This document shows positions 16,659 through 62,885 of a DNA stretch of 64,000 bases, piece after piece; within the stretch, counting starts at the first letter, position 1; every line of letters starts with the position of its first letter. The notes beneath the pieces are model-generated. The model ran no database searches and was not told where the DNA came from. It saw only the letters and a list, made by a program, of their open reading frames with translations. The DNA is taken from assembly GCA_963718515.1 (NCBI GenBank), contig OY970354.1:238363-302362 (forward strand), written 5' to 3'. A program made the translations under genes and the position numbers. This DNA comes from an uncultured bacterium. Its GTDB lineage: Bacteria; Patescibacteriota; Minisyncoccia; UBA6257; 2-01-FULL-56-20.

Positions 16659-16948
16659 ATGAATTTTAAACCGTTATCGAATCATCTGTTCCTTGAGCCG
16701 GTGGAAGAAGAAAAACGACCGCGAGCGGTATCGTCTTGCCGGACACCGCGGAAAAAGAAAAACCGGTGAAGGCAAAAGTAGTCGCGGTCGGCCCGGGCAA
16801 GAAGAACGACAAGGGCGAACTTCAGCCGATGGCGGTCAAGATCGGCGACGTGGTACTTTTTAAAAAATATGGGCCGGATGAATTCGAGCTCGAAGGAAAG
16901 AAATATCTGGTCGGCGACGAGGATGACATTTTAGCGGTAATAGAATAA
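16659..16948 (+). pseudogene. groES: co-chaperonin GroES with one frame disruption (a missing A in the A5 run at 16711-16715)
   Basis: MNFKPLSNHLFLEPVEEEK reads in frame 0. TTASGIVLPDTAEKEKPVKAKVVAVGPG...ILAVIE continues in the -1 frame. Adding one A restores a normal GroES of about 96 aa. Confidence 0.8.
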
Positions 16949-16976
16949 CTACGCACAAAAATATTTATTTATATCC

Positions 16977-18635
16977 ATGGCAAAACAAATAAAATTCAAC
17001 GAAGACGCGCGCGCTTCCATAAAGAGCGGTATTGATAAGCTGGCGGATGCCGTCAAGGTGACGCTCGGCCCCCGCGGCCGCGCAGTCGTGATCGAAAAAG
17101 GCTACGGTGCGCCGCAAGTGACGTTCGACGGCGTGACCGTCGCAAAAGAGATCGAGCTTGAAGACAAGTGGGAAAATTTCGGCGCGGAGTTCATTAAGCA
17201 GGCGGCGGACAAGACGAACGACCGGCGCCGGCGACGGTACGACGACCGCGACCGTCCTCGCGCACGCGATGATCGACGAGGGTGAGAAGGTGATCCGCGA
17301 AAAGGGCTTCAACGTGATCCAGCTTGCAGAAGAGTTAAAGAAGGCCAGCATTTCCGTTGTGAAGGCGCTCGAGGGCCAGCGCGAGGCTATTAATGATAAT
17401 AAAAGGATAAAAGAGGTGGCCACGCTTTCTGCAAAAGACGACGAGATCGGCGGACTCATCGCGACCGTCATGGAAAAAATTGGCAAGGAAGGCATCGTGA
17501 CCGTCGATGATTCCAACACGATCGGCAGTTCGTACGAAATAGTGGAAGGCATGCAGTTCGACCGCGGCTATGTTTCGCAGTACATGGTGACGAACCAGGA
17601 AAAGATGGAATCCGTGCTCGAAGAGCCGTACGTGCTCGTGACGGACAAAAAGATTTCTTCCATCCAGGATATTTTGGCCCTGCTTGAAAAGATCGTGCAG
17701 AGCGGAAAGAAAGAATTATTGATCGTCGCCGACGACGTCGATGGTGAGGCACTCACTACGCTTATCGTGAATAAGCTCCGTGGCGTATTCAATGTGCTTG
17801 CGGTAAAAGCCCCGGGCTTTGGCGACCGGAAAAAAGAAATGTTGCAGGACATTGCGGTCGTGACTGGCGCCGCGTTCATTTCCGAAGAACTTGGCAAGAA
17901 GTTCGAGAACACGGAGCTCGCCGACCTCGGCCGCGCGCGCCGCGTTGTGTCCACAAAGGACGCTGACGACGATCGTGGACGGCAAGGGTGAAAAGAAAGA
18001 TATCGATGCCCGCGTTTTGGCAGATTAAGGCACAGATCAAAAAGACCGATTCCGATTTTGACAGCGAAAAATTGCAGGAACGCTTGGGTAAACTCTCGAA
18101 CGGCGTCGCCGTCATCAAAGTCGGCGCGCCGACGGAGTCCGCGCAGAAAGAATTGAAGCAGCGCGTGGATGACGCCGTCTCCGCGACCCGCGCCGCTATG
18201 GAAGAAGGCATCGTCCCGGGCGGCGGCATCGCGCTTCTGAACGTCAACTTTGAATTATTCTCAAAGCCCGAGGCGGAAAAAACGGTGAAGGCCGCCGCGA
18301 TCTCTATCTTGCGCCGCGCGCTCGAAGCGCCGATCCGCGCGATCGTGGAGAACAGCGGCGAATCCGCCGACCGTGTGATCGACGAATTGAGCAAGCGTAC
18401 GAACGAGCCGTGGCGTGGCTTCAACGCGCTCACCAACAAGACGATGGGTGATCTCCGCGAAGCCGGCATCATCGATCCGCTCAAAGTAACACGCACCGCG
18501 TTCATGAATGCGGTCTCGGTCGCCGCAAACTATCTTACGATCGGCGCGGCCGTCACAAATATTCCGGAAAAGAAAGAGATGGGCATGCCGGGAGGTATGG
18601 GCGGCGGCATGCCGGGGATGGGAGGGGATTACTAG
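16977..18635 (+). pseudogene. groEL: chaperonin GroEL with three +1 frame disruptions (about 17222, 17964 and 18014-18020)
   Basis: Three ORF pieces (16977.., 17158.., 17988..) join to ...[20 protein letters not shown]...VVSTKDA/TTIVDGKGEKKDIDARVL/QIKAQI... and end with GGMGGGMPGMGGDY. Each junction needs removal of one nucleotide. Confidence 0.85.
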
Positions 18636-18640
18636 GTCTC

Positions 18641-18676
18641 AGCCCCTTCGCTAAAACGAAGGGGCTTACTTTTTTA
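18641..18676 (+). terminator. intrinsic terminator after groEL
   Basis: AGCCCCTTCG-ctaaaa-CGAAGGGGCT followed by a T run. Confidence 0.8.
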
Positions 18677-18906
18677 TCGGGGGCTCGTATTGCCGGATAT
18701 GCTACCGGGAATGCCATTTCTCGATGACAATCATCGTGTTGCGGCGGTGCTGGTAGTAAATGATGGAGCCCAGTCAGGTTTTGTGAGGATGATAGATCTT
18801 CGGCGTTTTATCTCCCTGGCAAAGAAAGTTTCCGTCCCTGCGTGGCCTCAGCTTATTGAGCGACCCACAATTTCGGGCCTTTCCCACCCCTGACCCCTCT
18901 CGGTTC

Positions 18907-18947
18907 CCGTCCCAATAGCGCATGCGCTTGCGGGACGGTTTTTTTAT
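18907..18947 (+). terminator. intrinsic terminator with no clear upstream gene
   Basis: CCGTCCC ... GGGACGG stem with an 18-nt loop containing the GCGCATGCGC palindrome, followed by T7. Confidence 0.55.
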
Positions 18948-60340: not shown

Positions 60341-60421
60341 TCCTCGTGGATATCGTATAATGATTCTAAGAGAATAGATGGAAAGGTCGAAGGTTCTCTA
60401 GTATCTATTTAAGATTAAAAA

Positions 60422-61063
60422 ATGAGAAAAAATAATAAAAACAAGAAGGGCTTCACCCTTATTGAATTGTTGGTTGTTATCGCGATCATCGCGATTTTGG
60501 CGGTTGTGGTTATCTTGACCTTGAACCCGGCGGAACTTTTGCGCCAGGCTCGTGATTCAAACCGCGTTTCCGACTTCGCGACGCTCAAGAGTTCGATCGG
60601 ATTGTATTCCGCGGACGTTGCTACAACGACGTGGTTGGGTGCCGTGGCAAATACCAGCACGATATATGAATCGTCAATCTTCAGCCTTACCACTCCCACC
60701 ACGACCACTCTTGTGAGCGCGGTTTGCGGCGCCAATCCTGGTTACGGTTGGGGTTTTGTGGGAGAGACTCAGACGAGCACACCGACTGTTGCAGCTACCG
60801 CAAGGTTAGTGAATGGAACCGGCTGGATTCCCATCAACTTTACCGCGATCAGTTCGGGAGCTCCCATCGGTTCACTCCCGGTGGATCCGGTGAATAACGG
60901 TGCGAATGTCTACGCGTTTGTGGGTGCTCAGACATCGTACAAGCTTGCCACGAAGACGGAGAGCGTAAAGTACAGTAACGGCGGCACTGCTGACGTGGAA
61001 TCGACCGATGGCGGCAATAGTGCGTGCGCATACGAGCAAGGTACGAATATTACGGGCTTGTAA
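60422..61063 (+). CDS. type IV pilin / pseudopilin with a prepilin N-terminal methylation motif
   Basis: KKGFTLIELLVVIAIIAILAVVVI (G/FTLIE cleavage-methylation site). Confidence 0.85.
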   Translation: MRKNNKNKKGFTLIELLVVIAIIAILAVVVILTLNPAELLRQARDSNRVSDFATLKSSIGLYSADVATTTWLGAVANTSTIYESSIFSLTTPTTTTLVSAVCGANPGYGWGFVGETQTSTPTVAATARLVNGTGWIPINFTAISSGAPIGSLPVDPVNNGANVYAFVGAQTSYKLATKTESVKYSNGGTADVESTDGGNSACAYEQGTNITGL

Positions 61064-61085
61064 GATCGTTAGTACTATCGTTCAT

Positions 61086-61125
61086 AAAAAGCGTTCTGCG
61101 CCGAACCGGCGCCGGGCGCTTTTTA
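61086..61125 (+). terminator. intrinsic terminator after the pilin gene
   Basis: AAAAAGCG..GCGCCG-aac-CGGCGC..CGCTTTTTATTTT. Confidence 0.55.
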
Positions 61126-61168
61126 TTTTGCCCGGCGCTCTGTTATCATTAATGCAATAGCGAGAACC

Positions 61169-62885
61169 ATGAAACTCCCTCTTTCTCCGGACCAGCTCAA
61201 AAAACTTCTCATCGAGCAAAATCTCATCACCGCCGAGCGGTTCGATGGGCTGTATCAGGAGGCCGAACGCAAAAGCCAGAGCATCATCGATGTGTTGGTC
61301 TCTGAAAAAGTGGTGGATAGGAATTACCTGAATGATATGATCGCGAAACTGCTCGGCGTGCCGCGGGTGGATTTTAGCCTTCATAAAATAGAGAAACAGA
61401 CGGTGAGACTGCTCGCGGAAGATATTGCGCGCCAGCGACAAGTTATCGTCTTTAATAAAGAGAAGGATGGGACGTATGACATTGCGATGATCGATCCCTC
61501 CGACCTTGAAACGCAGGAATTTCTGGCACAGCGCCTGCAGGGGAAGATAAAGCCGTTCCTCGCCTCCGCGGAAGATCTAAACAGGGGATTCTCCGTATAC
61601 GGATATGAACTTGGCCGGGATTTTAAAAAGTTGATCGACGATAACGTCCGCGCGTCGCTCGCGGGCCAGACAAAGGACGTGCACGACGCCGCCGCCGATC
61701 TTCCTATTGTGGGAATCGTGGACAACATTCTTTCCTATGCCCTCGCATCGCGCGCGTCGGATATTCATATAGAGATCCTCGAGGAATCCATGTTCGTCCG
61801 CTATCGCATCGACGGCATTCTTTATCAGATCATGGATATTACGAAGGCCGTCCATCCCGGCGTCGTGGCGCGCATCAAGCTTTTGGCCGGGCTTAAGATC
61901 GATGAACATTTTGCGCCGCAGGACGGCCGTTTCCGGCATGTGCTCGGGAATCAGACGATCGACATCCGCGTTTCCACTATGCCTACCTTCTTTGGCGAAA
62001 AGGTGGAAATGCGTCTTCTCGAATCATCCCAGAAGCCGCTCTCGCTCGAAGAGCTCGGGATGACGCCGGAAGTTTCAAAGATCGTCTCCGACAATTTAAA
62101 GAAATCATACGGCATGTTCATCTCGTGCGGACCGACCGGTTCCGGAAAGACGACCACGCTGTACGCGCTCATGAACATGCTGAACCGCCCGGAGGTCAAC
62201 GTGACGACCGTTGAAGACCCGATCGAATACAATATGCGATACGTCAACCAGACGCAGATCAATCCGCAGGCAGGCGTCACCTTCGCATCCGGCCTCCGCG
62301 CGCTTCTGCGGCAGGATCCGAACATCATCATGGTCGGTGAGATCCGCGACGACGAGACTGCGAACATTGCCGTCGCAGGCGGCGCTCACGGGACATTTGC
62401 TTTTGTCTTCGCTCCACACGAACGACGCACCGACGGCGATCCCGCGTTTTTTCGATATGAACATCCCGCCGTTTCTCGTGAGCTCTGTTCTCAACCTTGT
62501 GCTGGCCCAGCGCCTCGTAAGGAAAGTCTGCCAGACATGCATCTATTCCTACGACGCCGATCCCGCTGTCGTCGCTACGCTCCAGACCCAGCTTAAAGAC
62601 AATGGTTTGGATAAAGATAAGGTGCGCATTCCGAAAACGCTCTATAAGGGAAAGGGATGTTCGTCGTGCGGCATGACGGGGTATCGCGGCAGATTCGGCA
62701 TTTATGAAGCGTTCGAGGTGGATGAAAAAATGAAAGAACTTATCGTCGCGCCCCATTTTGACCTGCAGGCAGTGCGCAACCAGGCGCGCGAGGACGGAAT
62801 GAAGACGATGTTCGAAGACGGACTTCTTAAGGTGGAACTCGCGCTCACTACGCTCGAAGAAGTGCTCCGCGTCATTCGGGAATAG
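61169..62885 (+). pseudogene. pilB: type IV pilus assembly ATPase PilB (GspE family) with one +1 frame disruption (about 62375)
   Basis: T2SSE N-domain and CGPTGSGKTTTLYA (Walker A). ...IMVGEIRDDETANIAV/QAALTGHLLLSSLHTNDAP... needs removal of one nucleotide. A C-terminal CxxC...CxxC motif is present. Confidence 0.85.

Follow-up and report, generated by a model that had tools for sequence, protein, structure and literature searches.

Frame breaks in ten genes of a Paceibacteria metagenome contig as probable consensus errors blended from related bacteria

Indel (insertion or deletion) errors in consensus sequences from long-read and hybrid assembly, as examined by IDEEL-type tests, have been described as homopolymer-driven and genome-wide (Sereika et al. 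2022, PMC9262707). The stretch analysed here (the window), 64,000 nucleotides of an 829,201-bp Paceibacteria contig (Patescibacteria, or candidate phyla radiation, CPR) held by NCBI/ENA, resembles such assemblies in that single-base indels split intact genes into adjacent open reading frames (ORFs) that were deposited as such, but its 24 frame disruptions lie mostly outside homopolymers, occur in no more than 10 of 66 genes (groES, groEL, gyrB, mscL, infB, parA, parB, a relA/spoT homologue, topA and pilB) and, where checkable, fall at columns with two alleles. Collapsed or chimeric consensus in metagenome-assembled genomes, formed at sequence shared by co-occurring genomes, usually shows itself as chimeric single-nucleotide polymorphism patterns and contig breaks. 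The window shares with this the placement of errors in sequence common to relatives, alleles from more than one population and short-read or k-mer contigs that break at those places, and departs from the usual form in that the blend also yields frameshifts, by keeping both bases or neither. Programmed frameshifting (the +1 shift of prfB, the -1 shift of dnaX) and the poly(A) slippage that rescues endosymbiont genes occur at sites conserved in orthologues and within defined slippery or homopolymer motifs, and the mitochondria of Perkinsus have frameshifts conserved between species at specific codons. Like the first two, the window has genes that can be read only through a change of frame, but their orthologues are uninterrupted, the contexts of the breaks are unrelated and an independent assembly is without the shifts; like Perkinsus, it has many frameshifts in essential, conserved genes, but relatives and the same-sample assembly lack them.

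The deposited sequence does contain the breaks, yet they are not biology. The reading that we favour, at a probability of roughly 88%, is that they are consensus-building or polishing errors in a metagenome-assembled genome into which the reads of related bacteria were blended. The window was placed on the 829,201-bp contig through its DprA, a 100% match; the other DprA homologues, among the best 120 listed, have 54-79% identity and are metagenomic, those with a named source coming from Candidatus Paceibacterota or the Patescibacteria group. The syntenic reference, from which full-length reference genes were taken, was a metagenome contig of 141 kb from JGI (loci L004, L008 and L009) that is collinear with most of the window. 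The independent assembly consisted of Logan k-mer contigs from run ERR11630394 (L001, L002, L003 and L010), reached by exact-protein look-up, in which the ThyX-like protein, the 385-residue protein upstream of gyrB, RbfA and a pilin were unmatched, probably owing to the choice of start codon. The own-strain Logan contigs cover pilB and the first 382 codons of topA, with none for groES, groEL, gyrB, infB, parA, parB or relA.

At both of the loci covered by the independent assembly the gene is intact. The contig across pilB encodes a PilB of 571 amino acids between flanks (60518-61168 and 62886-64000) that are 100% identical to the window, all of its differences falling within the gene (Table 1), while the broken version has entered the public record as a 475-residue protein (P0241, NCBI/ENA) equal to the truncated pilB ORF with its out-of-frame tail and a 70-residue protein (P0362) equal to the C-terminal remnant. 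In topA, the Logan frame is open for 382 codons to the end of the contig and differs from the window by 67 substitutions and about nine indel events (79 differing alignment columns in 1.15 kb); third codon positions account for 45 of these substitutions, and 42 of the 61 differing codons are synonymous. Outside the disrupted genes, about 8.9 kb of control sequence compared with the Logan contigs gave a single difference, near 15005 in a small ORF, where the window reads GATGA--AGCTCC and the Logan contig GATGAGCCGCTCC. There a 74-residue SPW-family protein stays in frame in the window, with the C-terminus NNVEK as in the relative, and is shifted in the Logan contig; either the population truly varies at this place or the Logan contig is wrong. 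A preliminary description of this DNA had put the breaks down to consensus or polishing error from related strains or species and had thought genuine inactivation implausible unless intact copies existed elsewhere. The former view gains support from the intact Logan topA and pilB, the blended alleles and the relative-like substitutions; inactivation is contradicted for topA and pilB by the intact own-strain alleles on identical flanks; and the matter of intact copies elsewhere was answered otherwise, the independent assembly having the intact version at that very locus.

The notion that the frameshifts are real, whether because essential genes have turned into pseudogenes in a decaying lineage or because of programmed ribosomal frameshifting or transcriptional slippage, is hardly credible in this light. 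The indels do stand in the deposited record, an A5 run contains the groES site, and A6 or A7 runs may contain one site each in relA and topA, but the independent assembly on identical flanks is without the topA and pilB indels, the orthologues are uninterrupted in all relatives examined (L004-L009, L012-L023 and all protein hits, which are single ORFs), the sites share no slippery motif, correction of the frame leaves neither stops nor any further trace of decay, and topA alone would require ten recoding events. It is also highly improbable that a subpopulation truly carries the shifted sequences, either as a defective 'cheater' episymbiont lineage whose essential genes broke following recombination with relatives and which intact co-resident cells complement, or with the shifted genes expressed through low-level recoding; were this true, the public contig would be a genuine genome and not a consensus error. 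Quadruplet decoding, with a family of odd tRNA-like genes (see below) acting through enlarged anticodon loops as +1 suppressors, was considered and rejected because relatives whose genes are intact have these tRNA-like genes too, because the +1 sites share no four-base codon and because the independent assembly is without the insertions.

At the indels themselves, the window reads as a mixture of the organism's own sequence and that of its relatives. At pilB 62376, the own (Logan) sequence is GTCGAGGCT, six of six relatives have GTGCAGGCG or GTGCAAGCG, and the window has GTCGCAGGCG. At topA 56497, the own GCGCG-A-AAG and the relatives' GCGCG-C-AAG have become GCGCG-CA-AAG, with both alleles kept, and at 57256 the window has AAAGCAA where the own sequence is AAGCAA and two relatives have AAAGGG. 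At 57120, the own sequence is CGCGCATTGGC, one relative has AAG and the others GCGCTCGC, and the window has AAG followed by GCGCTCGC; at 56851, own CCA-TTC and relatives' CCG-TTC stand against CCGTTTC in the window; and at 56950, where the own sequence is CTC and the relatives have ATG, the window has CT-, with neither allele kept. The +2 shift at 57010 is in a lysine-rich stretch of variable length among relatives, and topA also contains, at 56393 and 56396, a self-cancelling -1/+1 pair three bases apart in comparison with L001, which alters one or two codons and keeps the frame. All four indels of groES and groEL fall at columns that vary among four relatives (e.g., GAC-G[C]TG in the window and GAC-GTG in the relatives; at the missing base of groES the relatives carry GAG or GAA), and by sequence comparison they look like the same kind of event as the blends of topA and pilB. 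A variant of which both alleles are kept becomes a +1 shift, which accounts for the 2:1 excess of insertions and for the position of most sites outside homopolymers.

The substitutions that accompany the indels point the same way. In pilB, the window-specific changes 62327 G>A and 62381 T>G are the bases of six of six relatives, and three of three substitutions are towards the relatives' alleles. Two PilB residues differ: at one the window has I, as in 68 of 68 relatives, and at the other it has D and the own sequence A, against E in 56, D in 9 and A in 3 of the relatives, which puts the window nearer to them without its carrying the majority residue. Across the differences between the topA of the window and that of L001, three relatives share the window's state at 42 sites and the L001 state at 21. 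These patterns bear on a further explanation, in which the breaks are uncorrected raw long-read errors left where short-read polishing skipped conserved genes through ambiguous mapping, with no foreign alleles involved. Long reads with Illumina polishing are common practice for closed CPR genomes (an example pipeline is PMC11809585), the errors are restricted to genes common to relatives, and Logan contigs tend to stop at tRNAs and conserved genes, i.e., the assembly graph is tangled there. Random read errors would nevertheless be unlike the accompanying substitutions, which are biased to position 3, mostly synonymous and matched by relatives, and the indels are blends of own and relatives' sequence, at most about 5 of 24 are in homopolymers of at least four bases, and insertions exceed deletions; we consider this explanation unlikely.

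The second allele may instead have been conspecific, carried by a subpopulation with recombined conserved segments that the assembler collapsed, in which case the frameshifts would still be artefacts and the heterogeneity biological. Divergence is 0% over 1.9 kb of dprA and its flank and jumps abruptly to 6% in topA, the change setting in about 100 nt ahead of the topA start, within the 3' end of dprA, and recombination imports are known to favour conserved genes. Against it, the window at topA 57120 seems to join features of two different relatives, and the foreign alleles of pilB span just about 55 bp, short for an import; we consider a conspecific source quite unlikely.

If reads of related bacteria were blended in, as we favour, the organism would be a Paceibacteria bacterium among many related species, its conserved genes about 76-85% nucleotide-identical to theirs (as measured on one JGI relative), and in those genes the reads of relatives, or of a diverged co-resident allele, would have aligned onto the contig alongside its own. 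Where the alleles differ, the caller would sometimes have kept both bases (+1), sometimes neither (-1) and sometimes half of a multi-base difference, and some of the relatives' substitutions would also have been copied into the consensus; the true genome would have intact genes at all these loci. We infer that the sites beyond the N-terminal half of topA and pilB, counted as 13, arose likewise, and that foreign alleles entered via read mapping in polishing or consensus calling; the program and the read type responsible are a deduction of the same order.

The catalogue of breaks was obtained with a frameshift-aware protein-to-DNA aligner, written for the analysis and run with relatives' full-length proteins. 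The preliminary description had listed 23 breaks (16 of +1 type and 7 of -1 type) and had confined them to nine conserved core genes, with all others uninterrupted. Alignment reproduced every one of them and found broken frames in all the listed genes, the counts and signs being exact and the positions agreeing within a few bases. The nine genes stand, and full-length alignment, Pfam or the codon-usage frame tracker bears out the continuity of the others save for mscL, a tenth and just moderately conserved gene, which ends the exclusivity and brings the total to 24 breaks in genes making up 13.4 of the 58.8 kb of coding sequence. The Pfam domains Cpn60, GyrB, IF-2, ParA, ParB, T2SSE, RelA/SpoT and topoisomerase I are split over adjacent ORFs in different frames. 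Once the frame is corrected, in-frame stops number zero in any broken gene, and the corrected proteins are 82-95% identical to the relative's orthologues, while the same relative's DprA reaches merely 67-69%. The break in infB was placed with E. coli IF-2 (43% identity), which makes its position accurate to a few codons only; queries with the chimeric proteins retrieved relatives of GroEL, GyrB, PilB and RelA and none of IF-2.

Several genes add detail to the entries of Table 1. GroEL aligned at 91-95% amino acid identity to the relatives' proteins P0165, P0155 and P0160, and GyrB at about 90% to P0173, P0123 and P0135, with a nucleotide alignment to L009 as well. The second shift of parB restores the original frame, and the tracker shows 0->2->0. 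In three-frame translation mscL reads ...IRKG in one frame and then PPAATTKVCPEC... in another, the tail frame being without a start codon; its C-terminal zinc-ribbon-like extension (CPEC...CAYC) is also present in the relative. The relA/spoT homologue has 83% amino acid identity to RelA of L004, is about 80 codons shorter than this syntenic counterpart and is without an ACT domain, as are several relatives' RelA/SpoT proteins (490-518 residues), and the missing domain is probably natural. Homopolymers of four bases or more account for at most about 5 of the 24 sites (groES in A5 and possibly groEL 18020 in T4, relA in A6, topA 57010 in A4 and topA 55795 in A5 or A7), the remainder being in runs of one to three bases, and no common motif or slippery sequence was found across the contexts of the breaks. 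The frame tracker, trained on the window, repeats the known frame hops and gives no further hops in other well-scored genes; it is uninformative in a low-GC (guanine plus cytosine) block at 36-40 kb, where hidden shifts in lineage-specific genes are possible. The remaining genes have either a one-piece, full-length alignment to the relative's orthologue or a full-length Pfam match.

The distribution of the breaks is as uneven as had been claimed. When 24 events were placed uniformly over the 66 genes, a spread over 10 genes or fewer was reached in 0 of 200,000 trials, and the probability of at least ten events in topA under uniform placement is 5e-8. The disrupted genes have 76-85% nucleotide identity to the JGI relative, above the intact genes (Mann-Whitney p = 0.005), and all 17 genes with less than 75.8% identity to it are intact. 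Across dozens of clusters in the clade, protein identity is 93-97% for GroEL and 82-90% for GyrB, and related reads could therefore plausibly align there.

Other observations weigh against the blending of relatives' reads, or limit how far it can be carried. Conservation does not fully predict which genes are broken: rpsR, nusG, secE, lemA, htpX, the TrxB-like gene, grx and the gene of a 379-residue protein are intact at 80-85% identity, where about five events would be expected (4.6 kb, at the rate seen in the broken genes other than topA), and mscL was hit at only 76% nucleotide identity. Small target size and the abundance of particular relatives in the sample are possibilities for these exceptions. 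The enrichment of indels in locally conserved stretches within genes is weak (mean percentile 0.59, p = 0.07). After correction, GroEL and GyrB lie no closer than usual to the family consensus, with unremarkable ranks of 40 of 73 and 24 of 44, respectively; a 'community centroid', that is, a majority consensus of many species, was rejected on these ranks, which imply that contamination was sparse except in topA. The independent assembly could be set against only 10 of the 24 events plus the compensating pair, all in pilB or the N-terminal half of topA, Logan contigs are themselves fallible, as the version that breaks the small ORF at 15005 shows, and ERR11630394 is presumed to belong to the data behind the 829-kb contig.

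Apart from the frame breaks, the most curious item of the window, which has a GC content of about 53% and nine tRNA calls by ARAGORN, is a family of unusual class-I tRNA-like genes of 73-74 nt. Two copies are in the window, and others are in relatives (L008 9495-9567, L009 12720-12793 and, on the minus strand, L004 4748-4823; also L012-L024). The window copies score 36 and 47 bits with the Rfam tRNA model, compared with 56-76 bits for six tRNAs above the gathering threshold, and the cloverleaf is backed by covariation, with compensatory changes in 11 of 21 pairs. All 14 distinct sequences have G3·U70, the alanine-type identity pair, mostly with A73 as discriminator; position 37 is a pyrimidine, nearly always C, and pairs 31·39 and 53·61 are usually mismatched. 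The positions of these genes are conserved, between the TrxB-like gene and groES, between gyrB and secE and, in other contigs, between pilB and pilC, while syntenic orthologues have different nominal anticodons (CGA and TAA; GAG and TAG; elsewhere TGA and TGG). The anticodons all correspond to Ser or Leu save for one TGG (Pro), and normal long-arm tRNA-Leu and tRNA-Ser genes coexist with them. One idea, drawn from sequence features, is that the family may represent an alanine-charged tRNA without a decoding role; a literature search on G3·U70 tRNA-like genes in Patescibacteria found none. Separately, the tRNA-Ser(GGA) gene scores 45.7 bits with one non-standard D-stem pair, its orthologue in a relative scoring 57 bits, and could contain a further small consensus error or natural variation.

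Several protein-coding features were also recorded. The interval from groEL to lemA encodes a 537-residue protein with two ThyX (Thy1) stretches; groEL directly adjoins lemA in the syntenic relative, so the gene is an insertion in the window, and its exact product had no match in the protein collection. A free-standing LAGLIDADG_3 ORF, homing-endonuclease-like, follows htpX and overlaps its end, and the relative has a shorter LAGLIDADG ORF elsewhere. The low-GC block (45-46%), which has deviant codon usage, contains two zinc-ribbon proteins of membrane type, one with a trypsin-like protease domain, and is possibly acquired DNA. A 429-residue plus-strand ORF at 12682-13971 was rejected as a gene by homology, the true genes there being a VTT-domain gene and a PAP2_C gene on opposite strands.

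Table 1. Coordinates of the broken genes, of the Logan contigs and controls, and of other features of the window. Percentages in the last column are amino acid identities.
Feature	Position	Strand	State or change	Basis or remark
groES	16659..16948	+	-1 at ~16710-16712, A5 run (GAAGAAGA-AAAACG)	alignment to GroES of L008, 86%
groEL	16977..18635	+	+1 at 17223, 17962 and 18020 (frame 2->0->1->2)	three ORFs with Cpn60 pieces
gyrB	32300..34428	+	+1 at ~33386-33389 and ~33504	Pfam pieces in three ORFs
mscL	40150..40549	-	one shift (+1 or -2) at ~40240	two frames hit by tblastn with MscL of L009
infB (short IF-2)	46877..48392	+	+1 at ~47651	GTP_EFTU and IF-2 domains in two overlapping ORFs, different frames
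parA (soj)	51560..52385	+	+1 at 51989	Pfam pieces; ParA of L004, 94%; nucleotide alignment
parB	52387..53457	+	-1 at ~52675, +1 at ~52788	ParB of L004, 82%; nucleotide alignment
relA/spoT homologue	53538..55064	-	+1 at ~53950-53974, -1 at ~53681-53686	Pfam HD_4 and RelA_SpoT; nucleotide alignment
topA	55068..57316	-	ten net shifts	Pfam; alignments to TopA of L004, L005 and L001; base by base against L001
topA, +1 shifts	57254-6, 57117-9, 56849, 56497, ~56140, ~55940	-		
topA, +2 shift	57009-14	-		
topA, -1 shifts	56950, 56320, ~55795	-		
pilB	61169..62885	+	+1, extra C at 62376; substitutions at 61686, 62327 and 62381	Pfam, alignment, L010
L001 (3.2 kb)	59348 to 56167		no difference over 59348-57430 (dprA and two hypothetical genes), divergent in topA	
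L010 (8.9 kb)	60518-64000		four differences, all in pilB: 61686, 62327, extra C 62376, 62381	
L003	48921-50647		100% identical	control, aminotransferase region
L002	12951-16400		identical save a 2-nt indel and one substitution at ~15005	control
dprA and two hypothetical genes	57430..59348		100% identical to L001 up to the topA side	control
dprA	57342-58382	-		100% match to the 829,201-bp contig
Aminotran_4 (branched-chain/D-amino-acid aminotransferase family) gene	49331-50299	+	intact	identical to Logan contig
thioredoxin-reductase-like gene	15375-16304	+	intact	identical to Logan contig
SPW-family small ORF	14851-15075	+		difference at ~15005
tRNA-like gene	16475-16547	+		
tRNA-like gene	35002-35074	+		
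tRNA-Ser(GGA)	22872-22959	+		
ThyX-like gene	18971-20584	+		
LAGLIDADG_3 ORF	22019-22867	+		
low-GC block	36000-40000			
VTT-domain gene	12694-13302	-		
PAP2_C gene	13321-13965	+		

The frame breaks have no biological significance in themselves, and they are worth flagging for curation and quality control. The signature of the error consists of breaks limited to conserved genes, synonymous substitutions towards relatives, and both alleles or neither kept at variant columns. Within 64 kb, a public, near-complete 829-kb Paceibacteria genome has no fewer than 24 false frameshifts, concentrated in the genes most relied on for phylogeny, completeness and metabolic inference (groEL, gyrB, topA, infB and others), so that pseudogene counts, the inference of gene loss in the CPR and marker-gene trees that draw on this record would be misled.

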